From Candidatus Flemingiibacterium sp. (GTDB lineage Bacteria; Bacillota; Clostridia; Oscillospirales; CAG-272): DNA of 64,000 nucleotides. Below, in pieces: positions 8,398 to 60,793 of the stretch (its first letter is position 1; each line of letters opens with the position of its first letter). The stretch spans positions 4,329 to 68,328 of the forward strand of contig JAZQZL010000018.1 of the NCBI GenBank assembly GCA_045634005.1, given 5' to 3'. The translations under genes and the position numbers were made by a program. A model generated the notes under the pieces. It searched no databases. It had not been told where the DNA came from and saw only the letters and a program-made list of their open reading frames with translations.

Positions 8398-8456
8398 ATA
8401 AAAAACCACCCTTTGGAGTACCTGCGATAAAGCAGATTTATAAGATATATAAAATT

Positions 8457-8492
8457 ACCGCCACGAGTGACCAAACGGTTACTCTCGGCGGT
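8457..8492. terminator. Hairpin inside left end of element A
   Basis: accgcc..gagtgacc-aaac-ggttactc..ggcggt. Confidence 0.6.
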
Positions 8493-8498
8493 TGTTCT

Positions 8499-9326
8499 TT
8501 ATCCTTTAATAAATGGCGTATTTCTGATATGCGATTGTAAACTATATGCTCCCTTATAGCCAATCTGCCTTGCCATAATGAACAGCGCGAGCAGATTATG
8601 GTTAGGACGAGAATAGAACAACATACGTTCCTCTCCGTTGATAGTGAGTTTCTGCATCCATATCACTTTTAACGTTAACAGATCATCCAAGACATTTTCC
8701 AACTGCTCTTTCTGAATCGCACAATCTCTTTCAAGAACTTCTTTTTCAAAAACATAATTCTCTGTCTTGTGATACAAGTAAATCAATGCATTCATCGTGC
8801 TTTCATGAGAAAGGGCGGCAAATATCTCCTGCAAATCCTTCTTATCGTTCAAAAAATATCCGTATCCCTCTGTCGGCTCGGGAAATACAGAAAAGAAAGG
8901 TTCTTTTCCGTTCGATACGATTGTAAATCCATTATCGTCAAGAATATAGGATGCATTTTTCTGATTCTTGATTTCATTAGGATCGTATCTTTTTCCAATC
9001 TCCATACGGCAATTAAACAAACCTCGTTCAATCTGCCAACCGATATCACGCGCGACATTGAATCGTTCCTTTGCCTCGGTATTATGGATTAGCTTTACAA
9101 TTCTTCCCGAAATATCTGCCATAGTAACCGTTTCGTTTCCGAATAGCTCGTCAAGAGACACCTCAAGCTCATTAGCAAGAGGAACAAGAAGCGCGCCGTC
9201 GGGGTACGTTTCGCTTGTTTCCCATTTTGAAACCGCTTGCGCTGATACTCCAAGCTTTGTAGCAAGCTGCTCTTGCGTCAGATTCTTGTCAAGACGCAAT
9301 CTTTTGATATTACCCGATAAACTCAT
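8499..9326 (-). CDS. XRE-family HTH regulator with C-terminal winged-helix-like region
   Basis: LTQEQLATKLGVSAQAVSKWETSETYPD. Confidence 0.88.
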   Translation of the reverse strand: MSLSGNIKRLRLDKNLTQEQLATKLGVSAQAVSKWETSETYPDGALLVPLANELEVSLDELFGNETVTMADISGRIVKLIHNTEAKERFNVARDIGWQIERGLFNCRMEIGKRYDPNEIKNQKNASYILDDNGFTIVSNGKEPFFSVFPEPTEGYGYFLNDKKDLQEIFAALSHESTMNALIYLYHKTENYVFEKEVLERDCAIQKEQLENVLDDLLTLKVIWMQKLTINGEERMLFYSRPNHNLLALFIMARQIGYKGAYSLQSHIRNTPFIKG

Positions 9327-9327
9327 C

Positions 9328-10200
9328 TTATTTACCTCCGATCATCTTGCATCTTCCGTTGAAGTTGTATTCATAGGACTGTCTGCCGCACATTCTTTCA
9401 AATGCCAAGGAAATTAAGGACAGAACAAGACCGTCGCCGTGGCATTCGTACACCTTGACATCTCCTTCGGCAAGATGCGCTGTTACCCAATGGCATGCTC
9501 CTACAGAACAGAATTCATCGAGAATTTCGGAAACTCGTTCTTCTTTTACTCCTGTATTCTTTGCAATATAGTCTGCCGTGAAACTTTCAGAGCAAGCGGT
9601 GGAATGAACATAATAAAGAACGGACAAAGCATCTTCACTCGACAAGAACTTGAAGATTTTAACGATTTCTTTTTTCTTATTCGAATCGTTCATCCATGCA
9701 AAATCAGCTTTGTTGCGGAGCATCATTACCGCCACGTTTACATTTTCGGAGCTTGCTACAAACTCAAAAAACTCATGAAGCGATATGTTAGAACGATAAA
9801 AATGCGATATCTCAGACGGAAAAACGTTTTCCCTATCATAAACATCATCACTATATTTAGAAACCGTTCCATACATAGCCGGAATAAGCGCTTTTACCGC
9901 TTCAAATGCTTTTAGCACAGATTCGCGGCGATCAAGCCCTTCAAACAAAGAGCGGATTTCTTCCGTCGTGCTTTGCTTTTTGTCCTCGGAAAGTCCGAGA
10001 AGCGTGTCGGTGGTGACACCATAATATTTTGCGAGTTCTACCACCATAGGAAGATCAGGCGTTGAAGCCCCATTTTCCCATTTGGGAACCGTTTTATTTG
10101 AAATAGATAGGCTTTGTGCCACATCTTCTTGTGTTACTCCCTTTGAAGTGCGGAGCTCCACCAATTTTTCTGCGATCTTACATTCGTACATATTTTTCAC
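9328..10200 (-). CDS. XRE-family HTH regulator, paralogue-like partner of the adjacent gene
   Basis: VTQEDVAQSLSISNKTVPKWENGASTPDL; stop lies 1 nt before the next start. Confidence 0.88.
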   Translation of the reverse strand: MKNMYECKIAEKLVELRTSKGVTQEDVAQSLSISNKTVPKWENGASTPDLPMVVELAKYYGVTTDTLLGLSEDKKQSTTEEIRSLFEGLDRRESVLKAFEAVKALIPAMYGTVSKYSDDVYDRENVFPSEISHFYRSNISLHEFFEFVASSENVNVAVMMLRNKADFAWMNDSNKKKEIVKIFKFLSSEDALSVLYYVHSTACSESFTADYIAKNTGVKEERVSEILDEFCSVGACHWVTAHLAEGDVKVYECHGDGLVLSLISLAFERMCGRQSYEYNFNGRCKMIGGK

Positions 10201-10401
10201 CTCTCGAAAAATTCAAGTTCCGGAGCTTGTGACTATATTATACACAAAACCAACGGTAGAGTCAACAGAGTGATATTTTATTATTTCTCCATTTCGGAGA
10301 ACAGAATATACAGCAATCAACCAATCGTAGTAAATAGCTTTTGTGTCCACAAAAGCAGTGCTTGTCAGGAAAAGAAGACGGACTGTCGGAACGCACAAAC
10401 C

Positions 10402-10527
10402 AAAGGCTCCCTTGTGCAAAGGGAGCTGTCACCAAAGGTGACTGAGGGATTGTTTTACGGTATAATTTTGCTTTTTACAATCTCTCCGTCTTGCTACGCA
10501 AGCCCCCCCCTTTACACAAGGGAGGCT
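10402..10527. repeat. Gene-less copy of the DUF559-flanking palindromic repeat pair
   Basis: aaaggctcccttgtgcaaagggagctgtc...tgagggattgt / acaatctctccgtc...ccctttacacaagggaggct. Confidence 0.88.
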
Positions 10528-10550
10528 CTTGACCATTACCGCCCGACAGT

Positions 10551-10595
10551 ACACCTAAAAGGTGTAACACATTATACCGTGCGCGCAAGCGTGTG
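10551..10595 (-). other. Putative MobV-type oriT
   Basis: ggtgtaacacattataccgtgcgcgcaagcgtgtg aligns with 52428-52464; minus strand TAATGTGTTA is one mismatch from the pMV158-family nic TAGTGTG/TTA. Confidence 0.7.
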
Positions 10596-10634
10596 AAAAG
10601 GAGTACGAACAAATTTGTTCGTACTCCTTTTGTC

Positions 10635-10710
10635 GTAGGGCGGGGCCTTGCTCCCGCCGGTTTATTAAATTCATGTTGATTGTAACGGCGGCACCAAGGC
10701 ACCGCCCTAC
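10635..10710. repeat. GTAG-type REP doublet (REPIN-like)
   Basis: GTAGGGCGGGGCCTTGCTCCCGCCG ... CGGCGGCACCAAGGCACCGCCCTAC (inverted). Confidence 0.8.
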
Positions 10711-10769
10711 AAGATTTCAGCAGGTAAAACCTGCTTTATGGAAGACACCCCTTCGGGTGGCTTTTTTAA

Positions 10770-11078
10770 TCAAAGAAGCGCCGCGATCTGATCTTTTCTG
10801 ATAAATCCGAGTGACTTATTTGTCATCTCACCGTTTTTGAATACCATTACGGTCGGGATGCTCATAATTCCAAACTGACGCGCCAGATCTTCCTCTTCGT
10901 CGACGTTCACCTTGCCGACCTTTACCTTGCCCTCGTTTTCCTCGGCGAACTTTGCAAGCTCGGGAGCGAGCATACGGCACGGACCGCACCAAGCCGCCCA
11001 GAAATCAACGACTACGGGAAGCTCCGACTTTAATACTTCTTCTTCAAAATTTGCTTTTGTGATAACTATTTCAGCCAT
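10770..11078 (-). CDS. trxA: Thioredoxin
   Basis: DFWAAWCGPC and IMSIPT motifs. Confidence 0.96.
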   Translation of the reverse strand: MAEIVITKANFEEEVLKSELPVVVDFWAAWCGPCRMLAPELAKFAEENEGKVKVGKVNVDEEEDLARQFGIMSIPTVMVFKNGEMTNKSLGFIRKDQIAALL

Positions 11079-15386: not shown

Positions 15387-16490
15387 TTATTTGATTTTTA
15401 TCGGGAGCTCAACTGTAAGTACAGTTTCTTCGCCATCAACATTCATAATAACCGTGGCCACTGCGGTGTATTTTCCGCTTGGTAGTCCGTTCATCTCCGA
15501 AAGTTCAGCAGCGAAGGTATCGGTGTACTTCACAGATTTACCAGCCTCGATAACGGCACTGTCCGAATAGGTAGACAGATTCGGTATAATATTCGCACCG
15601 GCTGCGGCAATCAGATCTATATCGCAGATGTATTCGGCTGTGACGTCAGTTTTGTTTGCGTTTTGAAGTGTAGCCGTAAGCGAAAGCGGCGCCTCAGGAT
15701 TGGCGTCAGCAAGCTTGTACGTACCGCGCTCGGATTTAAGCGTAAGCTTATATCCGTCCTGTGTGACCGACCGAGAGGTAGGCTGGGTTGGGATAAAGAG
15801 CGAATAATATCCTACGACAAGCATCGCAGCTATGATGAAGAATACCACGAGCATCACGATATGCCGTTTCGAAAGTATCGGCTTCACGTTTGTTTTAGGA
15901 ATAAAGCCAAGCTTCATAACGATCGGCACCATAGCGCCCATAAACATCACAAGAAGGAAGGCTTCCGCAGGAAACAGCGCGAGATTTTTCATTACACGCG
16001 GTATGGTCATAAACGCGTAGCTCTTTCCGTAAAAGATGTCGTAATACCACATCATAAGCGTGGGATTGATGATGAGATTGGTTATAGCTACAACCGAGAA
16101 TCGCGACAGTATAACGCGCGTTGCAGTCATATTTGAACGCCACAAAAAGAGCGCGAACAAAAGCGATCCGGATATCTCCTCAAATATGAAGGGAAAGAAA
16201 TACGCACCCTGCGGGAAGATAAGACATCCGAGCGTATCGCTTATCGCCGCCGCCACCATGGCTACCACCGGTCCGAATATCGACGCGCCAAGGGCGTTAA
16301 CAAAAAAGCCGACTGTGATGTTAAGGCTCGGTCCGACTGGAATCTGCACGGATTTCAGTGCAACTCTCACCGCAATAAGTATAGCCGCAATGCAAAGCAT
16401 ACGAATGTCGAAAAGCTGCATTGCAGCATCACGCCAATATGCGCACGAGAATGGATGCTTGTAGATAGGCTCGTTTCGTAAATCCTTCAT
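15387..16490 (-). CDS. folT: Folate ECF transporter S component with C-terminal extension
   Basis: FGPVVAMVAAAISDTLG..FPQGAYFFPF and PRVMKN motifs; THF riboswitch upstream. Confidence 0.85.
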   Translation of the reverse strand: MKDLRNEPIYKHPFSCAYWRDAAMQLFDIRMLCIAAILIAVRVALKSVQIPVGPSLNITVGFFVNALGASIFGPVVAMVAAAISDTLGCLIFPQGAYFFPFIFEEISGSLLFALFLWRSNMTATRVILSRFSVVAITNLIINPTLMMWYYDIFYGKSYAFMTIPRVMKNLALFPAEAFLLVMFMGAMVPIVMKLGFIPKTNVKPILSKRHIVMLVVFFIIAAMLVVGYYSLFIPTQPTSRSVTQDGYKLTLKSERGTYKLADANPEAPLSLTATLQNANKTDVTAEYICDIDLIAAAGANIIPNLSTYSDSAVIEAGKSVKYTDTFAAELSEMNGLPSGKYTAVATVIMNVDGEETVLTVELPIKIK

Positions 16491-16556
16491 AAAATAAAAA
16501 TACCTCCTTATAATGACATTCCGTATTGCCACATATAGGAGATATCTCCGTTATGT

Positions 16557-16655
16557 AACAGCGGGATGCGACCTTAGCACCGCAGATAAACATCTTTCGT
16601 TCCCAAGACAACTCCCCGTTCATGGGACACTTTACGCGCTATGATCTACTCTGTA
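16557..16655 (-). promoter_or_regulatory. THF riboswitch
   Basis: ACAGAGTAGA..GCGTAAAGTG..GAACGGGGAGTTG..AACGAAAG..CTGCGGT..CGCATCCCGCTGT matches the THF aptamer pattern; upstream of folT. Confidence 0.9.
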
Positions 16656-16999: not shown

Positions 17000-17074
17000 G
17001 GCCCGTTGGTCAAGCGGTTAAGACACGGCCCTTTCACGGCTGTAACATGGGTTCGATTCCCGTACGGGTCACCA
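17000..17074 (+). tRNA. tRNA-Glu (UUC)
   Basis: GGCCCGTTGGTCAAGCGGTTAAGAC...CTTTCAC...GGGTCACCA. Confidence 0.96.
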
Positions 17075-17213
17075 AATAAAAAATCCACCCTTTATGGGTG
17101 GTTTTTTATTTGCTTATCTGTTTCGCAGAATCGAACCCTTCGAATTGCCGCTAAACAAACGGTTATCCGCCCGAGTATGCAATTCGTGCCGCCGCGAAGC
17201 TGCGGCAGGCGAT

Positions 17214-17239
17214 TTCCCGTACGGGTCACCAAATAAAAA
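17214..17239 (+). repeat. Duplicated 3' end of tRNA-Glu (26 bp)
   Basis: ttcccgtacgggtcaccaaataaaaa identical to 17057-17082. Confidence 0.92.
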
Positions 17240-17392
17240 CCATCCCTTGGCGTACCTGCGATAAAGCAGTATTTTACTTCTTCTTGATGTAAAGTACTGC
17301 TTTATCTTTTCAACAATGAATTGATAATTGTTTTTTGAGAAATGTATGCTATAATATAATTACACCGGTGATAAACTTTTTGGAGGTACAAT

Positions 17393-18499
17393 ATGAACAT
17401 TAAAATAGGTGCGATTATCAAAAAACTTCGCGCAGAAAATAATATTACACAAGACACACTTGCTACTGCCATAGGGGTAACACCTCAAGCGATATCTCGC
17501 TGGGAGTCTGAAGGCGGGTATCCCGATATAGAACTTCTTCCCGCTTTGGCGGACTTTTTCTCGGTCAGCACTGATGAACTTCTCGGATACAAAATATCGG
17601 AAAGAGAACAAGAGCTTGCAAACATCAAAAAAGAATTGCGCCGTTTGGCAGAAGTGGGAACGCATCAAGAAAAGCTTTCTTTCGCCCGAGATGCGTTTGT
17701 TAAATTTCCGAACGATTGCAAAATCAAAGTTTATCTTGCTGCCTGTTTGTCGGACGAATGGAGAATTACACACGAGGAATCACTGATTCATGAATCCGAA
17801 ACCCTCTGTTTATCGGTAATTGATGACTGCCGTGATGAAGATATACGTTATGAAGCAATTTTTACTTTAAGCAGCATATATAACGAATTGGGAGAAATAA
17901 AAAAAGCGAGAAGCACATTAGAATTGCTCTCGCCCATGAAGTACTGCCGTGAAACGGCTCTCGCTTGCGGAATTGGTGATGGAAATACAGAATTCTATAT
18001 TCAAGATGAAATTGATAAACTTACCGACAGCTTGGGATTGTCCATTCACAATCTTGTACTGCATGAAGATTTACCGGGCGATCCCTCTACTTGGGATAAA
18101 AAAATTGAAATGCTTACTATTTCCAATCGTCTTTATGAGACGATATATGGGGACAATCTTATGTTTTATCACACTCGCCTCTCCCGAAATTATTGGTTGA
18201 TCTCTACCTATAAGATTGCACAAACCAAAACGGAAGAAGCCATTGAAATTCTTGAAAAAATGTGTTATCACGCCATTGAATACGATAAAGCGTATATCAA
18301 TGATCATGGCAAATTTTTCACATCAATTCTTGTCGATAAATTGATTTATCCTGAACCAAACAAAGATTTTCACGAGTGCACGGAGCATACGGAATGCTAT
18401 CATATTCTCAAAAAAATGCAGCATCCTCGATATGATTGCATTCGTCAGGATCCTCGTTTCATTTCAATTATTGAAAAATTGAATCAGTATACAAAATAA
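17393..18499 (+). CDS. XRE-family HTH regulator with helical (TPR-like) C-terminus
   Basis: ITQDTLATAIGVTPQAISRWESEGGYPDIELLPALADFF. Confidence 0.88.
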   Translation: MNIKIGAIIKKLRAENNITQDTLATAIGVTPQAISRWESEGGYPDIELLPALADFFSVSTDELLGYKISEREQELANIKKELRRLAEVGTHQEKLSFARDAFVKFPNDCKIKVYLAACLSDEWRITHEESLIHESETLCLSVIDDCRDEDIRYEAIFTLSSIYNELGEIKKARSTLELLSPMKYCRETALACGIGDGNTEFYIQDEIDKLTDSLGLSIHNLVLHEDLPGDPSTWDKKIEMLTISNRLYETIYGDNLMFYHTRLSRNYWLISTYKIAQTKTEEAIEILEKMCYHAIEYDKAYINDHGKFFTSILVDKLIYPEPNKDFHECTEHTECYHILKKMQHPRYDCIRQDPRFISIIEKLNQYTK

Positions 18500-50760: not shown

Positions 50761-51048
50761 TTATCCCCCTTGTTTGTTGATCTCGTTCATCTTGGCTCTT
50801 GCCATTGCCTTGCGTTCTTCGGTATAGGGATCGGTGATGCGATAGGCAAACCTTTTCTTATCGATCTCAAAGGAAAGGCATCCAAGCTCGTCATCATCGG
50901 TCAGCCGACAGAGGTCAGGGAACTTCTCGGCAAAGGCAAGCAGCCGTTTTTTCAATGCTGTGTTGTGCGTCCGTATGACTACGGGCGCGGGTGTTTCATC
51001 AAAATAGATTTCGGTTGTCTTTTGGCTTTTGGTTTTATTCGTTATCAT
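50761..51048 (-). CDS. Element-associated hypothetical protein
   Basis: TEIYFDE..IRTHNTALKKRL..FEIDKKR; GGAG RBS. Confidence 0.7.
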   Translation of the reverse strand: MITNKTKSQKTTEIYFDETPAPVVIRTHNTALKKRLLAFAEKFPDLCRLTDDDELGCLSFEIDKKRFAYRITDPYTEERKAMARAKMNEINKQGG

Positions 51049-51231
51049 TGTTTTTTCTCCTATTTTCATAAAGCTTTTGAAGCAAGGCGTTTTTTGCTCA
51101 AAAAGGCTCGGTCAAGAGCGTTGGAAAATGCGAATTTTCCAATAGAAAGTGCCTTTTTGATGTGGGATACGATTTAAGGCGTCAGAAACAGAAAAATCTG
51201 TTTTTTCACGGTCAAGACCGTATCCCCGGTT

Positions 51232-52233
51232 TTACTTATCCTCGCGGGCATCGCGGCTCTTGCTGCCCTTGATCTGTGCCATTATCTCGGGCGGTATCTT
51301 GTCCACAAGCCGCTTGTAGCGTTCAACCTGCTTTTCAAGAAGATATACGTCGGTCTTGTATTCCTCGATCTCTCGGTTCGCCCGATGGTTTTCAAGTTTT
51401 AGATCGAACACCTTTGAACTCTCTCGGTCAACCTTTGCGGAAAGGCTCTCAACCTCTTTTTCAAGCCCCTCAATGTGCTTGGTGGTTTCCTTGACTTTTG
51501 ATGAGAAATACTCTCCCTCCTTCGCCCACTCTCGTAGAAGTGTTAGAGCTTCTTCCGACTTGCCCTTGGCATTAAACATACCGATATTGGAGAGGATGGT
51601 TTCGACCTCGGAATACATCTTGTCAAGATGCTCGGCTTTCTTGTAGAGCCAAACGGGAATGTGCTTGCGGTGAGTGATCTTAGCAGACTCCCCGCGTTCA
51701 ATGACCTCATACTTTTCGTGCATATGCTCGTAGAAGCCGTCCTGCCAAAACTCCGATAGCCGCGCTTGGTTGCCGACGATCTCCTTTGCGGTCAATCGGT
51801 TATCCTCAGATAGTGGCACAAAGCAAAGGTGCATATGAGGTGTTTTCTCGTCAAGGTGGATAACGGCGGATATGATGTTTTGCTCTCCCACTCGTTCCGC
51901 CATAAAATCATAGGCGCGTTTCATATAGGCGAGCATTTCATCGTGGCTCATCGGTTGGAGCAAATCGGGCGATCCAGTGATGAGCGTTTCCACAAGAAGT
52001 ATACTATTCTTCTTGATGACCGTCTTACATTCGCTCTCGGCTATGCGCACCTTTACTATCTTGCGATAGCTTTTCTGTGCGGGTGTTTTCAGATGGATAT
52101 TGTCCTTGCTCTTTTCAAGGTCAATATCGGGGTTGGACTTGTAGGATTCTTTCTCTCGTTCGTTGTGTTTCTGCGCACTGAGTATCGTGCCGCCCTTGTG
52201 TTTCTTAAATCTTAAAATTGCGTGTACTGCTAT
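51232..52233 (-). CDS. MobV/Pre-family relaxase (TnpZ-like), probable ATA start
   Basis: Frame extends upstream of the annotated ORF: HAILRFKKHK..HNERE..SNPDID..; HLDEKTPHMH HUH motif; AGGAGG RBS before ATA at 52233. Confidence 0.9.
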   Translation of the reverse strand: MAVHAILRFKKHKGGTILSAQKHNEREKESYKSNPDIDLEKSKDNIHLKTPAQKSYRKIVKVRIAESECKTVIKKNSILLVETLITGSPDLLQPMSHDEMLAYMKRAYDFMAERVGEQNIISAVIHLDEKTPHMHLCFVPLSEDNRLTAKEIVGNQARLSEFWQDGFYEHMHEKYEVIERGESAKITHRKHIPVWLYKKAEHLDKMYSEVETILSNIGMFNAKGKSEEALTLLREWAKEGEYFSSKVKETTKHIEGLEKEVESLSAKVDRESSKVFDLKLENHRANREIEEYKTDVYLLEKQVERYKRLVDKIPPEIMAQIKGSKSRDAREDK

Positions 52234-52427
52234 AAGCGTTTCCTCCTGTTAGTCGTAATTTTGATGGATGCTTGTGAGGAAGCGAGGAGACGCGGGTACA
52301 CCGCACAAACGCGGCGGCGCTGTCACGCCTTATGCTTTCGTCGAAGTTCTGCCGCCATTAAGTGAGGCGGCAGAACTTCACCGAAGCGGAGCAAATTTGC
52401 CTGTGCAAATTTACTCTGTGTTTATAC

Positions 52428-52464
52428 GGTGTAACACACTATACCTTGCGATGCAAGGCGTGTG
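52428..52464 (-). other. oriT of element C (MobV type)
   Basis: Minus strand TAGTGTGTTA (52432-52441) with adjacent ccttgc-gat-gcaagg hairpin, ~200 bp upstream of the relaxase. Confidence 0.82.
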
Positions 52465-52837
52465 CCATCCGTTCCCTCTGGACTCCCTAAAAGGCTGCGG
52501 CGGAGCAGAAGCAATCCAACCCCATTGCCTCTGCATCCTTGCAACCTTACGGCTCATTTCGGCACAAGCACACCCGCAGCTTGTCCCTTATTTGCCGTAT
52601 CGAAGTAGACAACATTCTCACCGTTGGCTCGAATGTTTCCCTCCGCAACGGACGAGTATATCCGTTGCTACCGCCTCCGCGACCTCCTTTCTCTCGTCGG
52701 CGGTTATGTATTTGTGGGGGCAGTTATCATATATCCGACGATACTGCCGCCGTGTTTTTCGGGTGGTAACTTCTCACTTCGGCTCACTCTGAGCCGAGGT
52801 TAACCTCGCGCCAAGATGGCACGAAGCGCGGAAGAAA

Positions 52838-53104
52838 ACAAAAAAGACCCGTACTTTTACATACAGGTTACGGAGAGAAACACCAAAAAGCGAACAGCAC
52901 TTGTTCGCTTAAAAAGGTGATCTCCGTGCCCTTTATGTATGTAAAAGCACGAGTCTAAAACCTCGTGGACGCTGTGCTTTGCGTATAGAAAAACGGGACT
53001 TACTCAATTGCCCGCGGCACTTATAATCATATTTTGTTTGTATAAGATTAAGCCAAACAGGCTATACTCATAATGGAGTAGTCTGCCCAACTTACATCTT
53101 AGGG
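52838..53104 (-). ncRNA. Candidate structured RNA/leader upstream of the oriT-mob region
   Basis: Promoter TTGACA-16-TATACT (53111-53138); long imperfect hairpin 52845-52956 followed by U tract; no convincing ORF. Confidence 0.5.
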
Positions 53105-53188
53105 AGCATTAGTATATCATATGATGTTAACTTGTCAAGGAGAAATTTGTAGGTATAAGCAAAATTTGCAAAATATTCATTTATGAAA

Positions 53189-53217
53189 ATAGGCGTTGCC
53201 GTGAATGCAACGCCTAT
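53189..53217 (-). terminator. Hairpin after DUF262 gene
   Basis: ataggcgttgc-cgtgaat-gcaacgcctat. Confidence 0.65.
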
Positions 53218-53259
53218 AACTATAAATAATTTGGAGTTTTTATTTGGATAATAGAATGT

Positions 53260-54324
53260 TTAGCAAATATTTAACTTTTGTTTTATGAAGTTAATAATGC
53301 TGTTATAACGTTCCATTCTGCTATTGACACTTGCTACTGCATCTTGAGAATACAACAGATAGTTTCTAACGAATTCATTGCTATAATCGTTTGCAAAATA
53401 CATTTGATAGAATTCACAAATAACATTTATAACATCTTCTTTTTTTGCTTGATAATAGTTTTCTGCTTTAAGCGCATATGACACTACAAACAAAGTATAC
53501 AAGTGAGTTATTTTTGTTATTTGATTGATGATTTTAGGATCAAGGTTTTCTATTACTTGTTTCATCTCGTCTAACATCAAAATAACCGTTTCTTTATCTT
53601 CTTTGTATTCACTATAACTTTCATTGTATAAGTCATACATCTTATTTACTGTACTCTGACTTGTAGCAATTTTCATTCCTTTTCTAAGGAATATGAGTAA
53701 GTGACTGACAAACTCGACATCTTTCATTCTACGAACATCGGCGCTTGAGAACACTTTGTATTCATTCCAAAAATCTAATTCAGCAAGTTCTATTGACAAT
53801 TGTATGAATTTTCCATTAAATTGAGCATTTCTCAACTCTTGGGGATTTAATACCTTATTAGTAATGTTCAGACGCAAAAACATTGTTGTTATTTCTTCGG
53901 GTGTAATTTCATTATTTAAATCATTAATGTTTATTGCGTAAGACCAAATATCTTTTTTATTTTCGTCCGGCAAATCACAAAACTTTTTATTATCCCAAGG
54001 TGCATCGTTAGTTGATAGTAAGTGCTTTTTTGTTAGCGGGAATTCGTTGTTAAGATAACTAATTATTGCACCAACACGCTGTTGTCCATCAACAATGCTG
54101 TATCGGATTTTACCAGTTTTGGGATCTGGTTCTTGTTGCCACAAGTATATTGCCGGAATATCATATCCCAATAATATAGTTTCAATGAGACCTATTTTAT
54201 GTTTTTCTTCCCACACATATCTTCTTTGATAAGAGTTATCAATAAATATTTCTTCATTATCAAACATCGATTTTAATTGAAACACCGTTCTTGTAGTTGG
54301 GGTTATATTCTTTATAATTTTCAT
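53260..54324 (-). CDS. DUF262 (ParB/GmrS-like) domain protein
   Basis: YQRRYVW, LIETILLGYDIP, IVDGQQR, FLRLN and LNPQELRNA motifs; AT-rich. Confidence 0.92.
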   Translation of the reverse strand: MKIIKNITPTTRTVFQLKSMFDNEEIFIDNSYQRRYVWEEKHKIGLIETILLGYDIPAIYLWQQEPDPKTGKIRYSIVDGQQRVGAIISYLNNEFPLTKKHLLSTNDAPWDNKKFCDLPDENKKDIWSYAININDLNNEITPEEITTMFLRLNITNKVLNPQELRNAQFNGKFIQLSIELAELDFWNEYKVFSSADVRRMKDVEFVSHLLIFLRKGMKIATSQSTVNKMYDLYNESYSEYKEDKETVILMLDEMKQVIENLDPKIINQITKITHLYTLFVVSYALKAENYYQAKKEDVINVICEFYQMYFANDYSNEFVRNYLLYSQDAVASVNSRMERYNSIINFIKQKLNIC

Positions 54325-54325
54325 A

Positions 54326-54937
54326 TCATTCTCCTTCTTTCGTATATGGATTCTTTATATCGTATATTGTTTTAATTAGATTTTGTTTGTAATCATCATA
54401 AGAGCTATAAATTCGATAGCTGATTTTCTCGGGGAAATTAAATTTTATCTGCAAATCCTTTATGTACCCCGATGTCTTCTTCTCCCACTCTTTATACAAA
54501 GCAAGATTTGATGTGTAATTATAATGAAAATCGATAAAATGCTTAAAAATATTTTTTGCTGTTCGAGTATATGCTATGCCGGTCAAATCAGAAAAAACAT
54601 AGTCTTCAAAAAATTGTTTCCAATAAGATTCGAAAAGTCTCTTTTTTATAATAACAATATCGATATCTGATTCCTCATTGAAATCCGAAAAATCATTTTC
54701 AGGAGACAAACTGAATCCCAAAAGTGCACTTCCACATATGAACACATCGGTTGGAGGAATATCAAAAACCCCAGCCATATACGTTTTGAACTCTTGATAC
54801 TTTGATATTGCACTATTGGGAAACTCATTCGTAAAAAACCAAGGTATAGGAGTAGCCATAATCTCGTTTACAATATCATTGATATCGTTTTTAGATTGCG
54901 CTTCTTTTATTCTTTTGCTTAGTTCATCTTTATTCAT
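54326..54937 (-). CDS. Putative Pol-beta-superfamily nucleotidyltransferase
   Basis: hGS...SDIDhhh motif (ICGSALLGFSLSP...ESDIDIVII). Confidence 0.65.
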   Translation of the reverse strand: MNKDELSKRIKEAQSKNDINDIVNEIMATPIPWFFTNEFPNSAISKYQEFKTYMAGVFDIPPTDVFICGSALLGFSLSPENDFSDFNEESDIDIVIIKKRLFESYWKQFFEDYVFSDLTGIAYTRTAKNIFKHFIDFHYNYTSNLALYKEWEKKTSGYIKDLQIKFNFPEKISYRIYSSYDDYKQNLIKTIYDIKNPYTKEGE

Positions 54938-54945
54938 AATGTCTT

Positions 54946-56229
54946 TTATTTACCAATCGTATAAAAAATTCCTTTTCCATTGCCGTGGCGTTCAATCTTG
55001 CCTTCCTGCTCCAACTGCAATAGAATATTTCGTGTTTTTGTCAGCTTGAAGCCCAATTCTTCTTGCACCTCGGCGCGAGTGGCTCTGCCGCATTTAGCAA
55101 TAAAATCATAGACAAGCTCTTTATCGGTACGGATTTTCTTGGATTCTTCCATATACGTCTTGTTAGGCAAAACCAAAAGGAAGCCGTTATCCGCCACTTC
55201 AAAGCGCGGTTCAAGTCCCGTATGCTCATAATCGCCTTGTATTTTTTCAATGCCGGTGCCGTATGCTTCAACGTATTTGAGCTTGAAGAACACGTTAGCA
55301 AGTCTTTCGTTTCTTGAACGCGAGACTCCGAGCATCATATCCTCATAAGTCATTCCTGATACCAAACCACCTATGGACACGTATTCGATACGGTTTTTAT
55401 AAATACTAATAAGGATGCTGCCGTTAAGCGAGTAATCTCTATGAATGATAGCGTTGAGAAGTCCTTCGCGCAGAACAAGCTGATTGTATTCCGTCTTGTC
55501 CTCTCGGAGCAATCCGTTATATTCACCGCGGGTTTTATTATTCAAATTAAGGTACTCATAAACCTCGTCGGCTTGACGAATGAGAGAACCTTCGAACTCT
55601 TTGCGATCTAAAAATCTACTCTTGTCGTCACTATCAAAAACCGCAGCTTTGATAGAGAAAGGACATTGATCTGACAAAAGTAAGGCAAGATTGGTATAAC
55701 TTCCGTTTGCGTCTATCAATCCAAGCGTTTTTTGTTTCAGTTCGATTTTTGCACGTTTGAAAACGCTTTCAAGATAATCAAAAGTCAGATCTTGTTCGAC
55801 ACTTGGCAAAGACTCAAACGACTTATCCTCGCTCGCGATAATCATTTGCTTGATAGCGTACTCGGATGCTTGCTGCGAGGTATTATTGATACGGAGATAT
55901 ACACCACTTGGCTTCAATCCTTTTTCGTAAATGTAATATGGTTTTTTCACACCTCTGCCAATAGCAACCTTGACAATGGATTTACCATCTTCTTCGTATT
56001 CTCCCGCGCTGCAAATTAAAGAAGCATCGGGCTTGATTGCTTCGTGTATCATAAGGGAAATACGTTCTATAATATCTTTTGCGTTATCTACACCAATAAC
56101 CTTACCGTCATCGTCAACGCCAATAATCAAAGTGCCACCGTCACTGTTCAAAAAAGCAACGATTTCTTTTTTGATTTCGGTTGTATATTGTAACTTTAAT
56201 TCTAACTTTTCAGACTCAATATATGCCAT
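54946..56229 (-). CDS. Schlafen/AlbA_2 + HATPase_c_4 + HTH protein
   Basis: ESEKLELK..IVAFLNSDGGTLIIGVDDDG; REGLLNAIIHRDY; RNERLANVF..VEAYGTG; C-terminal wHTH. Confidence 0.9.
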   Translation of the reverse strand: MAYIESEKLELKLQYTTEIKKEIVAFLNSDGGTLIIGVDDDGKVIGVDNAKDIIERISLMIHEAIKPDASLICSAGEYEEDGKSIVKVAIGRGVKKPYYIYEKGLKPSGVYLRINNTSQQASEYAIKQMIIASEDKSFESLPSVEQDLTFDYLESVFKRAKIELKQKTLGLIDANGSYTNLALLLSDQCPFSIKAAVFDSDDKSRFLDRKEFEGSLIRQADEVYEYLNLNNKTRGEYNGLLREDKTEYNQLVLREGLLNAIIHRDYSLNGSILISIYKNRIEYVSIGGLVSGMTYEDMMLGVSRSRNERLANVFFKLKYVEAYGTGIEKIQGDYEHTGLEPRFEVADNGFLLVLPNKTYMEESKKIRTDKELVYDFIAKCGRATRAEVQEELGFKLTKTRNILLQLEQEGKIERHGNGKGIFYTIGK

Positions 56230-56270
56230 ATCATCATCCTTTCTATTACAATGCTATTTCTTTCTATTAC

Positions 56271-56299
56271 ATTCTATCACAATCTATTTGCTTTGTCAA
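56271..56299 (-). promoter_or_regulatory. Sigma-A promoter for the three-gene operon
   Basis: TTGACA-17-TAGAAT with extended TG. Confidence 0.75.
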
Positions 56300-56386
56300 T
56301 AGCAAATCAGTAAGTTAATTTAATTACTTGAAAAGAAAAGCCGCTATCGCGGCGTGATAATCACGCTTTGATAGCAGCTTCATCAT

Positions 56387-57679
56387 TTAATACCAAACGG
56401 ATTCGCAGGTCATAGTATAAGTTCCCGGTTCACCCGTATATGTAAGAGTCTTCTCATAGAGAGTATCTAAATGCGCACCCGTTACCAAAACCTCTCCCGT
56501 TTTAACTGCAACACCATCTCGGTATAACGTGTAGCGGAATTTAATATTTGACATTGATGTATTGCCTTGATGCGTCTTTTTGAGCATAAAGTTAATTTTC
56601 AATGTTATTCGTTCCGCAGACGATGCAGTCACACTATAATCGACACTTTCTATTTTACATTTCGTGTATAAGGTCATACTTGAAATGTAGGAGTATTCCT
56701 GTGATAAATTATTGGTTAGCGAAAATGTTACCGATTCAGCTATCGAAGAATAATCTTTAGGGGTTGTCGATTGCGCAATTATAACTTTTCCACAATCAGA
56801 ACAATGTTTGCCTTCGGTTAAACCAGTAGATGTTGGAGTCGCAGGAACAGCAGGATCAATAACTTCGGTATGTCCTTTAGCTGGTGTTTGATCAGCGTTA
56901 TAGGAATATCCGCAAGCGCAAGAATATGTAGTATATCCTCCAACTAAACACTGAGGCTCGACCACAGTTTTAGTATAAGAGTGGGAATGTTCAGAAATTG
57001 ATACATCTATCGTTATCTTAATGTCGGGATCTTCTTCCACATAAATCGTTACAAATGTACTGCCTGAAGATATTGGGTAAATTGTAATAGATGTAGTCAT
57101 GTCATCCCAATCACCCCACCTACAACTAATAATGCTTTCATCATCAATTTCGTAAACAAGCGTAACTTCATCTAAATTTTCAACCGTGATGTAACAGGTG
57201 TGTGAAGAACTTTCAAGTTGCAAATCATATGCAGTAGAGGTAAGCTCGGGCTTTGGAATTGGTTCGCCGATTTCTAATCCACACCACAAACAATGGGTTG
57301 CCCATTCATATGTTGCATATACCCAATTGTGAGCATCGTCATCTGTACTTTTCTCAATAATTTTTTGCTCTACAAGAATGGCGTTGCAAACCGAACAGTG
57401 TTTACCCTCGGTAAGTCCTGTTGCTGAGCAGGTAGCGTCAACCAAAGCATCAATAACCTCAGTATGACCTAAAGCTGAGATGGTTTGAGTTTGCATTTCA
57501 CCGCAAGAGCAATATCTAACTTTAGTGCCATCTTCGGTGCAAGTTGCTTTTTGGGTTGTTTGCCATTCTTCAAAATGATGCGTATGATCTTGATTGTTGT
57601 CATTAGGTGTATCGTTATCACACGCTGCAAGTGAAATAATCATTATTGCGACGAATATAAGTGCAATAATCTTTTTCAT
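56387..57679 (-). CDS. Lipoprotein with Cys/His-rich repeats and Ig-like regions
   Basis: LAAC lipobox; two GHTEVID..V.AT...TGLTEGKHCS.C repeats. Confidence 0.85.
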   Translation of the reverse strand: MKKIIALIFVAIMIISLAACDNDTPNDNNQDHTHHFEEWQTTQKATCTEDGTKVRYCSCGEMQTQTISALGHTEVIDALVDATCSATGLTEGKHCSVCNAILVEQKIIEKSTDDDAHNWVYATYEWATHCLWCGLEIGEPIPKPELTSTAYDLQLESSSHTCYITVENLDEVTLVYEIDDESIISCRWGDWDDMTTSITIYPISSGSTFVTIYVEEDPDIKITIDVSISEHSHSYTKTVVEPQCLVGGYTTYSCACGYSYNADQTPAKGHTEVIDPAVPATPTSTGLTEGKHCSDCGKVIIAQSTTPKDYSSIAESVTFSLTNNLSQEYSYISSMTLYTKCKIESVDYSVTASSAERITLKINFMLKKTHQGNTSMSNIKFRYTLYRDGVAVKTGEVLVTGAHLDTLYEKTLTYTGEPGTYTMTCESVWY

Positions 57680-57699
57680 AGTCATACCTCCAAGTATAT

Positions 57700-57903
57700 A
57701 AAAAGGTGCGCAACCGAAGCTACGCACCGAAAAACGCAAACTCCGATAGCTGCGAAACTAACCTTATTGAAAAAAGCATATTCTTGCTTCCCACTAAGTT
57801 AGAATTTGCGTTTTTACCAAATTCATACGCGGGAAGCATAAAAAAGGGTATAGTACCCCCTTTGAAAGCAAAATGCGTTTTTTCAATATTCAGTTAGTTT
57901 CGC
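57700..57903 (-). promoter_or_regulatory. Structured 5' leader with terminator (attenuator-like)
   Basis: Promoter at 57910-57938; nested stems; ggtgcgtagc-ttcg-gttgcgcacc-ttttt just before the RBS. Confidence 0.6.
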
Positions 57904-58051
57904 GTATTTATTATACCACATTTTCGAAAATTTGTCAATCCGTTTTATACTATAATAAAGTCTAACATTTGTTGACTGTTTGGCAAAAATATGGTATAAT
58001 AGAGATAATAAATCTTCTATTGCAATATGAAAACAAACGGAGGCGATTTAT

Positions 58052-58798
58052 ATGAGCAAAAAATACCAAGTTTTTGTTAGTTCGACTTATAAAGATTTAA
58101 AAGAAGAAAGACTTGCTGTAACACAGCATCTTTTAAAAATGGGATTTATACCTGTAGGAATGGAACAATTTCCTGCAAGCAATATGAGCCAAATGGAATA
58201 CATAAAAATGATGTTAGATGACTGCGATTATTACCTGTTAATCCTTGCAGGTAAATATGGCTCTGTTGCCGAAGATGGAGTTGGTTTTACTGAAAAAGAG
58301 TACGATTACGCCATTGCCAATGATATTCCGGTTATGAGTATACTAATAAGGGATATTGGAGAATTGCCAAGTAAAAAATGCGAGGACACAGATGAAAAGC
58401 GCACGCTTTTGAATAATTTTAGAGATAAAGTTTCCGCAGGTAAAATGGTAGATTTTTATACTGATATTGGAACACTTACTTCAGCGGTGGGGGCGGCAGT
58501 ACATCGTTGCGTTCGGGATTATCCTGCAAAGGGTTGGATAAGAGGCGAATCTTTAGGAGGTGCAGAAGATATTGAAGCTAAAATTGAAGAATATATGAGT
58601 AAGCACACTGTTTCAAAGGAAGACATAGAAGCTCTTTTTAAAGGGGAAACTGTTGTTCTAAATGGCGGCAATGCGAGTTCTCATACAGCAGGAGCAAAGC
58701 CGAAATCAGAATCAAATACAATTTCTTTATCAGGAGCACGGACATTAGTGGAAGAAATGGCGAAGAATCTTCCCAAAGTAGAATGGGAAAATATATAA
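58052..58798 (+). CDS. DUF4062 domain protein
   Basis: YQVFVSSTYKDLKEER, GMEQFPA, GKYGS and TEKEYDYA motifs. Confidence 0.9.
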   Translation: MSKKYQVFVSSTYKDLKEERLAVTQHLLKMGFIPVGMEQFPASNMSQMEYIKMMLDDCDYYLLILAGKYGSVAEDGVGFTEKEYDYAIANDIPVMSILIRDIGELPSKKCEDTDEKRTLLNNFRDKVSAGKMVDFYTDIGTLTSAVGAAVHRCVRDYPAKGWIRGESLGGAEDIEAKIEEYMSKHTVSKEDIEALFKGETVVLNGGNASSHTAGAKPKSESNTISLSGARTLVEEMAKNLPKVEWENI

Positions 58799-58842
58799 CT
58801 ATAGGGTTGGCGGCGAGGATTATTATCCCCGCCGCCATAAGT

Positions 58843-59109
58843 TTATTCAGTTAGTGCTTCAATGGCAATTTGCATACCAAGTTTGAAAGCATACTCAAAG
58901 ATAGCAGCCTCCGCCAAACTCATATACTCACTCCAACAATCGTGGAACTTTTCAAAGATTTCTTTCTGTTCGTCGGTCATCGTTTTGAGCAGATCGTCGT
59001 GATGCCGAGCCATATATTCCATAAGCTCTTTCATTTTGGGAGAGTTGTTGCGGCTGTCCTCTTGCGGTACGATGTTGCCGTGCCAAAGTTCATTGATGAT
59101 AGATTTCAT
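58843..59109 (-). CDS. DUF6809-like small protein
   Basis: IINELWHGNIVP...FEYAFKLG; start overlaps TnpV stop. Confidence 0.75.
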   Translation of the reverse strand: MKSIINELWHGNIVPQEDSRNNSPKMKELMEYMARHHDDLLKTMTDEQKEIFEKFHDCWSEYMSLAEAAIFEYAFKLGMQIAIEALTE

Positions 59110-59495
59110 ACCAACACCACCTCCTGCATAACAATTTCTTCCGCGCTCGCCTTGATATTGTTCATCTCGGCTACCCAACGGAGCATATCGCGAGCTTTCA
59201 AATTCTCGTCAATGTTTCTTTCGGCAGCGAGGCGGGGGATAATGGTTTCAAGCATTTCGTTTGCTTCAAGGTCTATCTCGTGCAACCGAGCGTTCAACTT
59301 ACCTTCGGTCAAGAGCGTGGTATACCTTCCGCGACGGTGATTCTTGATGTAATCAAGGTGCATCCGTCCATACTTGCCGATATGATATTCGGTCTGTTCG
59401 AGAAGTGCAATATCGGGTATAAGGTGTCCGTTTTCCTCGCGGTATGTACCACCGAGCTTTTCATAAAGATTATCAAAGTTCTTTTTCATTTTCAT
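59106..59495 (-). CDS. tnpV: TnpV-family protein
   Basis: GGTY....LIP..IGKYGRMH..Y.....Y..LL..GKL..WV..MNNI...AEE. Confidence 0.85.
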   Translation of the reverse strand: MKMKKNFDNLYEKLGGTYREENGHLIPDIALLEQTEYHIGKYGRMHLDYIKNHRRGRYTTLLTEGKLNARLHEIDLEANEMLETIIPRLAAERNIDENLKARDMLRWVAEMNNIKASAEEIVMQEVVLV

Positions 59496-59602
59496 TCTCC
59501 ATTACATTTAATTTTTATAAGCAAGTATTGTAATGGATTGCCTTTGTGTCTTTAATTAAGTCAGTGGTTGTCAGGAAAATTGACAAGGCATAGGTGAACA
59601 AA

Positions 59603-59654
59603 AAAGGCTCCCTTGTGTAATGGGAGCTGTCAGCGAAGCTGAGTGAGGGATTGT
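59603..59654. repeat. Palindromic repeat flanking DUF559 gene (left)
   Basis: aaaggctcccttgtgtaatgggagctgtcagcgaagctgagtgagggattgt. Confidence 0.88.
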
Positions 59655-59998
59655 TCTACGAGGTGATCAATATATTCACAGACACCTCGAAAGTTTTTAT
59701 ATATTTCCGTATTCGGTATTCTGATAACTGTCAAACCGTATTCTGCAAGAAAAGCGGTTCTTTCTTCATCGTATTGCTTTCCTTCTTCCGTATAATGTCC
59801 CGAGCCGTCAAGCTCTATGACGAGCTTTGCCTCTGCACAGTAAAAATCCGCAATATATTTGCCAAGAACCTTTTGTGGTGAAAAGCGTACGGGATAGGTG
59901 CGCAAAAAATCATACCAAAGATGCTTTTCTTCTTTTGTCATGTTTTTTCGTAGCATTCTTGCGGTAGGAACGATATCTTTTTTGTGTTTTCGCTGCAT
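59630..59998 (-). CDS. DUF559 (Vsr-like PD-(D/E)xK) endonuclease
   Basis: ARMLRKNMTKEE..LW, YIADFYC, IELDGSGH, DEERT..L..G..VIR motifs. Confidence 0.92.
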   Translation of the reverse strand: MQRKHKKDIVPTARMLRKNMTKEEKHLWYDFLRTYPVRFSPQKVLGKYIADFYCAEAKLVIELDGSGHYTEEGKQYDEERTAFLAEYGLTVIRIPNTEIYKNFRGVCEYIDHLVEQSLTQLR

Positions 59999-59999
59999 T

Positions 60000-60053
60000 A
60001 CAATCCCTCCGTCACGCTCCGCGTGCCACCTCCCTTTACACAAGGGAGGCTTT
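60000..60053. repeat. Palindromic repeat flanking DUF559 gene (right, inverted)
   Basis: acaatccctccgtcacgctccgcgtgccacctccctttacacaagggaggcttt. Confidence 0.88.
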
Positions 60054-60641
60054 TGTGCTGACCATTACGTATGCGTGGTCTGTTTCAAATTCATTTACAA
60101 TTTTAAGCTTTGTTATTGATAGATAACTACGTATATCGTTAGGGTTATCGGGATAAATTTTTATTTTTCTATCTCCCATATCGATATACTCATCCTTATT
60201 TTTATCGATTGATAGAACGAAAAGTCCGTTGTTTGTCAGCAAAGTAGCAATTTTTTGTATAGCTGATAATTTATCTTGTATATGCATAAAGGTTAATGAC
60301 GAGTATATTACATCGAACTGTGATTCAAATTCACAAGACATAAAATCACCGCAAATAAGCTTTATATTTCGATACGTTGATAGATTTTCAGCCGCTCTAC
60401 CAATTGTCTTTTCGGAAATATCTATTCCATACAAGCTTTTACAATTTGGTGCAATTTTTATGGCAAGTCGCCCTGTTCCGATTCCTATTTCCAAAGCGGA
60501 TTTGCTTTTATCAAGCCGCATACTCTCGATAAACTTCTCTCCGTCCCACTTATCCATATAATCTCTCAAAGGTTTAGGATCACGAGTAGGGTCATTGTTT
60601 TCGTCAATTAGCTTGTTATAATGTTCAATCACATCTCTCAT
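60036..60641 (-). CDS. Class I SAM-dependent methyltransferase
   Basis: LEIGIGTG, GIDIS, GDF and FDVIYS motifs. Confidence 0.88.
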   Translation of the reverse strand: MRDVIEHYNKLIDENNDPTRDPKPLRDYMDKWDGEKFIESMRLDKSKSALEIGIGTGRLAIKIAPNCKSLYGIDISEKTIGRAAENLSTYRNIKLICGDFMSCEFESQFDVIYSSLTFMHIQDKLSAIQKIATLLTNNGLFVLSIDKNKDEYIDMGDRKIKIYPDNPNDIRSYLSITKLKIVNEFETDHAYVMVSTKASLV

Positions 60642-60793
60642 ATATGTACCGTCCTTTTATCAAGGTTTTAGCAAATGTCCGTACTCTATTATATCACAAA
60701 AACTCCAGAAAATCAATCTGAGGTTTCTGTTTTTCTGTCGGCAGATAAAACTGTCCTTTAGGGTACAGCCCTATTGGCGCAGGTGTTTTAATT

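Follow-up and report, generated by a model that had tools for sequence, protein, structure and literature searches.

DUF4368-type serine recombinase elements in the loops of bidirectional terminators, a putative class of relaxed attachment sites

Why should three mobile elements in one stretch of a bacterial chromosome each sit in the loop of a transcription terminator? The question is raised by a window of 64,000 nucleotides (the whole stretch of DNA that was analyzed) from Candidatus Flemingiibacterium sp., a member of the Oscillospirales (assembly GCA_045634005.1, contig JAZQZL010000018.1, positions 4,329 to 68,328 of the forward strand). A preliminary description placed three insertions, here called A, B, and C, in intrinsic terminators between convergent transcription units, and proposed that their recombinases use palindromic terminators as relaxed attachment sites (attB). 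The junctions, the folds of the rejoined flanks, and the empty sites in sister genomes bear out the placement of all three. The best explanation, to which we assign a probability of roughly 60%, is that large serine recombinases (LSRs) of the DUF4368 clade placed A, B, and C at a degenerate, dyad-symmetric attB supplied by bidirectional terminators.

The junctions were read base by base. A is bounded by the core dinucleotide TT at 8413-8414 and 10752-10753 (element body 8415-10751), B by TT at 17247-17248 and 18937-18938 (body 17249-18936), and C by TA at 48644-48645 and 60772-60773 (body 48646-60771). The same 2-bp core is found at both junctions of each element without a longer direct repeat, and a single TT is present in the empty B site of a genome of the same genus, G016. 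Outside the cores, each left flank consists of an A-run and a G+C-rich half-stem, and each right flank of the complementary half-stem and a T-run. In A, attL (8400-8414, + strand) ends in the half-stem CCACCC(T) and the core, while attR (10752-10767, +) continues from the core into CGGGTGGC, so that CCACCC faces GGGTGG. The corresponding sites of B are attL at 17235-17248 (+, half-stem CCATCCC) and attR at 18937-18952 (+, GTGGATGG), with the pair CCATCC/GGATGG, and those of C are attL at 48626-48645 (+, CACCTGCGTCA) and attR at 60772-60789 (+, TTGGCGCAGGTG), with the pair CACCTGCG/CGCAGGTG.

The inner ends of all three elements are imperfect inverted arms of about 25 bp, which would form attP once joined. 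The left arms of A (GGAGTACCTGCGATAAAGCAG, 8415-8435, +) and B (17249-17269, +) belong to what we call the TT family, and that of A was found at 56 distinct flanks. C has arms of a second kind, the TA family; its recombinase-proximal arm (GAGTCGTAC followed by TCTAAAGGACAGTTTT, 48646-48670, +) was found on 78 non-redundant ends, and its distal arm lies at 60747-60771 (+). By Pfam annotation, the gene pairs around the three elements are all convergent. An mntR-like iron-dependent repressor gene (8020-8397, +; Fe_dep_repr_C 4.2e-16, Fe_dep_repress 2.3e-10) and a thioredoxin gene (10770-11078, −; Thioredoxin 7.1e-32) enclose A. B lies between a tRNA-Glu repeat and a MocR-type gene with GntR and aminotransferase domains (18997-20088, −; GntR 5e-12, Aminotran_1_2 1.2e-7), and C between a GFO/IDH/MocA oxidoreductase gene (47647-48624, +; 1.2e-25) and a DUF4330 gene (60794-61315, −; 1.3e-7).

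When each element was deleted in silico at its core and the joined flanks were folded with RNAfold, hairpins of −14.5 kcal/mol (A), −17.3 kcal/mol (B), and −19.4 kcal/mol (C) were rebuilt, each with the core in the loop, as the preliminary description had stated. The replacement hairpins that it had noted within A and C, close to their left ends, were also found to be strong. The hairpin of A (8457-8492) folds at −23.9 kcal/mol (z −5.6), and the stretch between the C arm and the recombinase stop codon (48673-48774) contains two, at 48673-48710 (−19.3 kcal/mol, z −6.8) and 48726-48774 (−31.7 kcal/mol, z −8.8), which are conserved beside recombinase homologs. At the right junction of A, the last arm bases, CACCCC, pair with the flank, and a terminator scan detected the resulting hybrid hairpin with T-run (10746-10759, −11.4 kcal/mol). 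The fold at the right junction of B was no stronger than those of shuffled sequences (z −0.5).

Genomes of the same genus show the sites in their uninterrupted form. At the A site, G016 and G024 hold a single unbroken hairpin between mntR-like and thioredoxin genes, with the stem CCACCC/GGGTGG and differing loops, and G008 holds a hairpin of another kind. The B site in G016 reads exactly aaaaaccatcccttgtggatggtttttt, the string predicted from the deletion of B plus one TT copy. At the C site, unbroken hairpins precede the DUF4330 gene in G016, G024, and G008, with the oxidoreductase gene directly upstream in G024 and G008. These uninterrupted sites indicate that A, B, and C were inserted into terminator-type hairpins that already existed. 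Excision at the core would restore these hairpins, and for B the match in G016 agrees with the earlier claim that the terminator would be restored exactly.

The B site has a further history of its own. The tRNA-Glu 3′ end, its terminator, and about 60 nt are duplicated (17060-17155 versus 17215-17246 plus 18939-19000), and in G016 the 3′ end of a recombinase-like gene, identified by eye, ends just ahead of the B-site terminator. From these two observations, the B target looks as though it may belong to the att repeat of an element that had previously integrated at tRNA-Glu. The copy of the terminator directly after tRNA-Glu (17078-17107; −17.9 kcal/mol, z −5.4) is unoccupied and bidirectional, and its loop contains TT with the typical A-run spacing, which makes it a candidate free target for the TT family. 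The hairpins at 15356 and 21512, put forward earlier as free test targets, do not qualify, having neither TT nor TA in their loops.

The same arrangement recurs at many unrelated hairpins. Of 61 related genomes, 10 (among them the present one) contain the 18-nt TT left arm (reversed control, 0 matches); it also occurs on 74 metagenome stretches, about 20 of which were judged by eye to be unrelated coding matches without the TT-GG context. After de-duplication by flank, the set comprised 24 complete elements (1.1-2.3 kb) and 32 further left ends; none of the 24 complete elements holds a recombinase-sized gene. In silico removal yielded a hairpin of −14.5 kcal/mol or lower, with the core in the loop, at 19 of 24 sites. 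The stems are unrelated to one another, as illustrated by GCATCC, GCCCTCC, TCCCCGC, GGAGCC, GACCTCCG, and GCAGGC. This genome contains at least five insertions of the TT type: A, B, one on contig C39, one split over contigs C55 and C80 with an AraC-type cargo protein (identified by eye), and a left end on contig C51.

For the TA family, a 15-mer of the arm was searched for in 301 genomes (97 genera) of the taxonomic family. It matched 63 genomes from 37 genera, at most 11 times in one genome (reversed control, 1 match). Loci were fetched for 30 of the matches and for 20 regions chosen for paired arms or multi-copy genomes, giving 78 non-redundant ends and 21 complete elements of 0.34-12 kb; their removal rebuilt a hairpin of −13.8 kcal/mol or lower at 18 of the 21 sites. 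Like the natural empty sites, the rebuilt hairpins of both families have the build expected of intrinsic (rho-independent) terminators, with a G+C-rich stem, a loop of 3-8 nt, and a T-run behind it. At least five TA-type insertions are present in this genome, namely C, those on contigs C82 and C87, the recombinase-bearing one on contig C85 (with a possible partner end on contig C31), and a left end on contig C25. The small elements C82:2471-4080 and C87:1276-2971 each encode one protein with a helix-turn-helix (HTH) domain and helical repeats, of 374 and 371 aa. Many pairs of TA arms are separated by 0.7-3 kb, and the elements on C82 and C87, which lack a recombinase, carry the same kind of cargo as the TT miniatures.

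Genome and shuffled-partner controls exclude chance as the cause of the hairpin association. At least four G-C pairs enclose the core at 18 of 24 TT insertion sites (75%), compared to 54 of 358 genome sites of the form A4-N-TT-N-T4 (15%), 37 of 178 such sites outside open reading frames (ORFs) of at least 120 codons (21%; Fisher p 2.4e-7 versus insertions), 2.4% of 20,000 randomly sampled TT, and 2.4% of 21,493 intergenic TT. When left and right flanks were re-paired between TT sites, the mean fell from the observed 5.0 to 2.44 ± 0.17 G-C pairs, and for TA sites from 4.24 to 1.56 ± 0.17; in either family, 0 of 2,000 shuffles reached the observed value. The enrichment of terminator loops across homologous elements, which the preliminary description had named as a check, is found in both families. 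Insertion at one conserved sequence or at random intergenic sites, the outcomes it had set against the proposal, fits the data poorly, as the stems differ and 75% of insertions have a stem found around 2.4% of intergenic TT.

The likely enzyme is found in C. This 12.1-kb element encodes an LSR at 48789-50447 (−; Pfam Resolvase 2.2e-22, Recombinase 1.1e-20, Zn_ribbon_recom 8.3e-11, DUF4368 1.2e-19), with a probable start at 50405; the alignment to a homolog from genome G352 starts at residue 15. The protein has all four domains of the DUF4368 (TnpX/TndX-like) clade: the catalytic Resolvase domain, the Recombinase domain, a zinc ribbon, and DUF4368. The element also carries a gene for a Mob_Pre relaxase (51232-52050, −; 4e-32), whose reading frame extends upstream by about 60 more codons with no canonical start among them, and one for a homolog of TnpV, an accessory protein of the Tn4451 family (59106-59495, −; 5e-39). 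A Pfam scan of 15 ORFs of C revealed no further recombinase or transposase family. Because a DUF4368 LSR, TnpV, and a Mob_Pre relaxase occur together, C is classed as an integrative mobilizable element of the Tn4451 kind. The DUF4368 recombinase is the presumed acting enzyme.

The low-G+C cargo of C (53260-58798) consists of genes for a GmrSD_N protein, a Schlafen/AlbA_2 ATPase, a putative lipoprotein, and a DUF4062 protein, together with a methyltransferase, and looks like a set of defence genes. At 53000-55000, where the GmrSD_N gene and its 203-aa neighbor lie, G+C content is 30-32%, versus about 47% in the surroundings, which suggests that the cargo came from a different source. All three elements also contain a palindromic repeat of about 130 nt (with ends GGCTCCCTTGTGTAAAGGGA and its inverse). 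It is nested in A (10403-10527) and B (18596-18719), while in C its two halves (59606-60050) flank a 137-aa ORF of the DUF559 (Vsr-like endonuclease) family at 59630-60043. The genome contains about 15 more copies (four at contig ends), and in gut metagenome contigs the depth of the repeat is more than 100 times that of its flanks. It resembles a small mobile element in its own right, accompanied by miniatures that have no ORF.

A and B lack such an enzyme. The preliminary description had spoken of recombinases in the plural; only C has one, and Pfam detected nothing but HTH_3 proteins in the other two. A (2.3 kb) encodes two, an XRE-type protein of 275 aa (8499-9326, −; HTH_3 3.8e-15) and one of 290 aa (9328-10200, −; 3.1e-12), and a two-gene counterpart is present in G039, a genome from another family within the same taxonomic order. 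B (1.7 kb) encodes one of 368 aa, in which the HTH_3 domain is followed by a helical repeat domain (17393-18499, +; 3.5e-14). The predicted structure of the B protein (pLDDT 82.5) had its best Foldseek matches in PlcR, ComR, PrgX, and Rgg2 (E 1.3e-5 to 3e-3, TM 0.19-0.37), and searches of the cargo proteins against NCBIfam and PDB sequences recognized the HTH domain alone. The HTH proteins were rejected as a transposase: Pfam assigns them to HTH_3 only, the cargo varies between elements, and an autonomous relative (see below) carries an LSR. A second candidate, that B is a TnpB-encoding IS200/IS605 element, was likewise discarded, since its sole long ORF encodes the HTH_3 protein and its ends are inverted repeats.

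Where, then, did A and B come from? Besides the left arm, they have in common a non-coding right end of about 420 nt (10337-10751, +, in A, with the right arm at 10731-10751; 18530-18936, +, in B, with the right arm at 18916-18936) that is 80% identical by blastn. An Rfam scan gave no match to these parts. This right end is homologous to the distal end of C, both reading TAAAG..CAG..TTTTACCT(A/G)CCGA. Moreover, a TT-type left arm lies 0.3-1.35 kb past the recombinase stop codon at six loci with relatives of the C recombinase (L026, L027, L048, L050, L038, and L052), followed each time by TT and a flank with A-run and stem. At the first of these (contig C49 of G352), the other end could be located 20.8 kb away, delimiting an element at about 82,135-102,935. 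Its flanks are complementary (GAGTTGTCC before TT, GGACAACTC after) and include the A-run and the T-run. It contains an HTH gene beside the left arm, a DUF4368 recombinase gene, and genes for ParB_N, a MobA/VirD2 relaxase, and a tyrosine recombinase. Overall, the G352 LSR is 83% identical to that of C; region by region, identity declines from 97% (catalytic domain) through 88% (recombinase domain) and 75-79% (zinc ribbon and coiled coil) to 67% (DUF4368).

Because this autonomous element combines A/B-type ends with an LSR, and because the right ends are homologous to that of C, A and B are identified as miniatures that arose by internal deletion within an LSR element family, a sister of the family of C. 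They can presumably still move, and would do so only in trans, via a related recombinase. Only three serine recombinase genes were found in this genome: that of C, one on contig C85, and a phage-type one on contig C23. The last was rejected as a mover of A and B, as it is 22% identical to the C enzyme, lacks DUF4368, lies beside phage-type repressor genes, and has no TT-type arm adjacent to it.

Taken together, we propose the following mechanism. A multi-targeting LSR of the DUF4368 (TnpX/TndX-like) type would act on attP, formed by the joined element ends, and on a target in the chromosome, with crossover at a 2-bp core (TT for the family of A and B, TA for that of C). From left to right, the target would comprise an A-run, a spacer rich in G+C (about 8 nt long in TT sites and about 12 nt in TA sites), the core that matches the element, a mirror spacer, and a T-run. 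In these genomes, hardly anything but bidirectional intrinsic terminators, with the core in their loops, would offer such a pattern, so that insertion would break no gene, and hairpins at the element ends would preserve termination to either side. The terminator would be rebuilt on excision. C, with its recombinase, TnpV, and Mob relaxase, would be autonomous for integration, while A and B, which retain both ends together with one or two regulator genes, would rely on a related recombinase acting in trans.

What such a recombinase recognizes can be gauged from the aligned flanks. The TT profile, built from 56 left and 24 right flanks, has A at 77-93% of positions −13 to −9 (93% at −12 and −11) and T at 83-100% of positions +10 to +13 (100% at +11). 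Between these runs, the left arm favors C (55% at −4, 73% at −3, 61% at −2) and the right arm G (54% at +2, 75% at +3). Among the 52 flanks with an A-run, the run stops 7 or 8 nt short of the core in 32. The left half of the target resembles the right arm of the element itself (GGAAGGCACCCC before TT), and TnpX targets are likewise known to resemble the circle joint. The TA profile, from 78 ends, shows 87-94% A at positions −27 to −24 relative to the arm, which corresponds to 12 nt from the core, and 63% C at position −14. Its core shows T at 73% and A at 74%, and the base before the core is A or T only, never G or C. From the distance of the A-run (about 8 versus about 12 nt), the two families appear to choose terminators of differing arm length.

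These profiles bear on the most serious alternative, which is that the recombinase reads structure. It would then recognize an extruded cruciform, or a single-stranded hairpin formed during replication or transfer, and cut in the loop, with the sequence of the stem irrelevant. In agreement with this, stems are unrelated between sites and complementary within each, a complementarity that exceeds any profile and marks the sites as real hairpins, and the hairpin excess persists after conditioning on A/T runs and intergenic location. Targeting of hairpin loops is also known for IS1397 and, in repetitive extragenic palindromic (REP) sequences, for IS110-family elements, according to the available part of PMC1525189. 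We nevertheless consider this alternative unlikely. The C-rich left arm and G-rich right arm of TT sites are strand-specific (C 73% versus G 18% at −3), and neither the likeness of the target to the right arm of the element nor the set distance of the A-run from the core would be needed by a pure structure reader. Two sites, L124 and L162, have A/T runs without a hairpin, and the serine integrases covered in the available part of PMC3783163 use duplex sites and need neither supercoiling nor a special topology. Both the C/G bias between strands and the set A-run distance favor a reading of duplex features rather than of an extruded hairpin, and a relaxed, dyad-symmetric duplex attB that bidirectional terminators satisfy is what we think probable. 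The proposal that terminators with unrelated stems act as relaxed attB sites is supported, and the pattern reaches well past the window; recognition independent of sequence is not, given the A-run distance and the C at −3.

Far less probable is insertion of low specificity at any AT-rich or TT/TA site, with the link to terminators produced by selective loss of harmful insertions. All sites examined are survivors in natural genomes, and Tn4451-type elements have been described as having low integration specificity (PMC5704250, available part). Selection on the host, however, would not be expected to produce an A-run distance specific to each family, nor to confine the core to a loop of a few bases, and the stem present at 75% of insertions surrounds 2.4% of TT between genes, or 21% where the intergenic site also fits A4-N-TT-N-T4. 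The weakest alternative casts the recombinase as a passenger on inverted-repeat transposons that a DDE transposase would move with duplication of 2 bp (IS630/mariner-like for TA). Terminal inverted repeats and an identical dinucleotide at both ends do mimic a 2-bp target duplication in sequence. This reading is highly improbable, as Pfam revealed no transposase family in the scanned ORFs of A, B, and C or in nine ORFs of the G352 element, the arm in autonomous forms always adjoins a serine recombinase gene at its 3′ end, and a TT core conflicts with the TA rule of IS630/mariner.

Several observations weigh against integration by DUF4368 recombinases at terminator-like duplex sites, or limit its reach. 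The hairpin is not strictly required: five of the 24 TT sites are weak, offset, or hairpin-less (L064, L069, L078, L121, and L124, the last with none), and three of the 21 TA sites fail to rebuild a hairpin (L148, L162, and L164, with none at L162). The spacing of the TT A-run ranges from 6 to 12 nt. All sites were gathered via exact arm words and so represent close relatives of these arms only, some of them interrelated. In this genome, which is 88% complete, no recombinase has A/B-type ends, and both DUF4368 recombinases adjoin TA-type ends. Under the 5-bp-shift model for attP versus attB (PMC3783163, available part), the fit of the TT family is loose, with an A/T-only pentamer 13-17 nt from the core in the arm and 8-12 nt in the target, and for the TA family the model fails.

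Arm type does not simply track recombinase similarity either. The recombinase of contig C85 (C85:11-1667) is 34% identical to that of C, yet has nearly the same outer arm and adjacent hairpin, while the 83%-identical G352 enzyme has TT-type arms; ends and enzymes seem to have been reshuffled as modules. Finally, no usable circle or excision joint was found in contigs from four public sequencing runs, which were short and dominated by repeats. The runs contained at most 0.20 of the sampled words, and the joints that were found came from the nested repeat and the tRNA. One contig from run X4 links the tRNA-Glu trailer to the right flank of B at less than 95% likeness, from which no conclusion was drawn.

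The terminator habit also has a boundary within the clade. Among 24 homolog loci inspected for which recombinase 3′ ends were available, the junction could not be defined at eight (L028, L031, L033, L036, L040, L045, L046, and L049). For recombinases 58-61% identical to that of C, the junction falls inside XRE-type genes at five of nine loci (L032, L034, L035, L037, and L039). In each of these five, the flank past the recombinase stop codon is the second half of an HTH_3 domain, starting from W-E-N-G (W-E-N-G..P-D...D-E-L). This subclade seems to target a conserved coding motif rather than terminators. Such junctions indicate that the target class is a property of the recombinase subclade, and that the terminator habit is clade-specific.

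C resembles the clostridial elements Tn4451/Tn4453 (TnpX) and Tn5397 (TndX) in its LSR with C-terminal extension, its imperfect inverted ends, its 2-bp crossover at both ends and in the empty site, and its TnpV and Mob relaxase. TnpX and TndX use GA as their core dinucleotide; the elements described here differ in their TA or TT cores, in a definable class of targets (terminator loops), and in the abundance of recombinase-less miniatures. Multiple copies per genome and relaxed target choice are further common features (PMC5704250 and PMC3158075, available parts), and for Tn6104, a TnpX relative, the 2-bp repeat is also found in the circle and in the empty site (PMC3158075, available part).

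In the available part of their study, Durrant et al. (2022; PMC10083194) describe DUF4368 as the mark of a multi-targeting LSR clade, whose domain architecture is the same as here. For one DUF4368 LSR they show 21 attB sites in which the core is TT and the ends are enriched in T/A; they read this as relaxed specificity, and the pattern matches our TT-family profile. The difference is that the A/T ends here are the tails of terminator hairpins, with stems complementary within each site. The words terminator, hairpin, and palindrom- have 0 occurrences in the main text of PMC10083194, although its supplementary attB tables may bear on this. The top matches of literature searches and the available main parts of PMC5704250, PMC3158075, and PMC13137831, supplements lying outside the search, gave no link between serine-recombinase elements and terminators. 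Terminator loops as an LSR target class and widespread recombinase-less regulator cassettes thus appear undescribed. IS1397 and ISKpn1 (in palindromic units) and ISPpu9/10 of the IS110 family (in REP sequences) also insert into extragenic palindromes and spare genes (PMC1525189 and PMC8450116, available parts). They use DDE or DEDD transposases, some of them RNA-guided, and their target is one repeated family, not unrelated terminators.

A, B, and the TA-type elements of 0.3-3 kb can further be compared to cassettes that lack an enzyme and are moved in trans, such as staphylococcal cassette chromosome (SCC) elements lacking ccr, mobile insertion cassettes, and miniature inverted-repeat transposable elements (MITEs). 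Like these, they keep both ends, carry no enzyme, and occur in several copies. They differ in keeping a gene, usually for an HTH-plus-helical-repeat regulator, and their mobilization is putative. The B cargo, with its N-terminal HTH_3 and predicted helical repeat domain, is most similar in its structural model to the RNPP peptide-pheromone receptors PlcR, ComR, PrgX, and Rgg. Its TM scores (0.19-0.37) are low, it matches no sequence family beyond the HTH, and no peptide gene was identified, though none was sought systematically. Elsewhere in the window, and unrelated to the insertions, a tetrahydrofolate (THF) riboswitch (16557-16655, −; 87.4 bits) lies upstream of the gene at 15387-16532; this and tRNAs were all that the Rfam scan of the whole window detected.

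We tentatively extend the proposal to a broader view, at somewhat less than even odds: that the DUF4368 clade has evolved to use the generic architecture of bidirectional terminators as a genome-wide family of attachment sites, with members differing in the stem length they select (about 8 versus about 12 nt between core and A-run), and has spawned a large population of recombinase-less cassettes of peptide-receptor-like regulators that spread from one terminator loop to another in gut Clostridia and leave the adjacent genes intact. If true, the vague relaxed specificity of multi-targeting LSRs would become a testable rule, namely that a bidirectional terminator of given arm length holds the matching core in its loop, which would help to predict and design gene-sparing integration sites in bacteria. 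The miniatures would be the serine-recombinase counterpart of MITEs, with a payload. Natural pairs of recombinases with different arms and spacing (83% identical, with 97% in the catalytic domain) would provide material for studying the evolution of attachment-site choice. The same rule would point to a source of split terminators and broken assemblies in gut metagenomes, and would explain how mobilizable defence islands and small regulator cassettes build up at low cost, with at least 10 such insertions in this 2.2-Mb genome. Terminators would thus serve as harmless landing sites for this group of serine recombinases.

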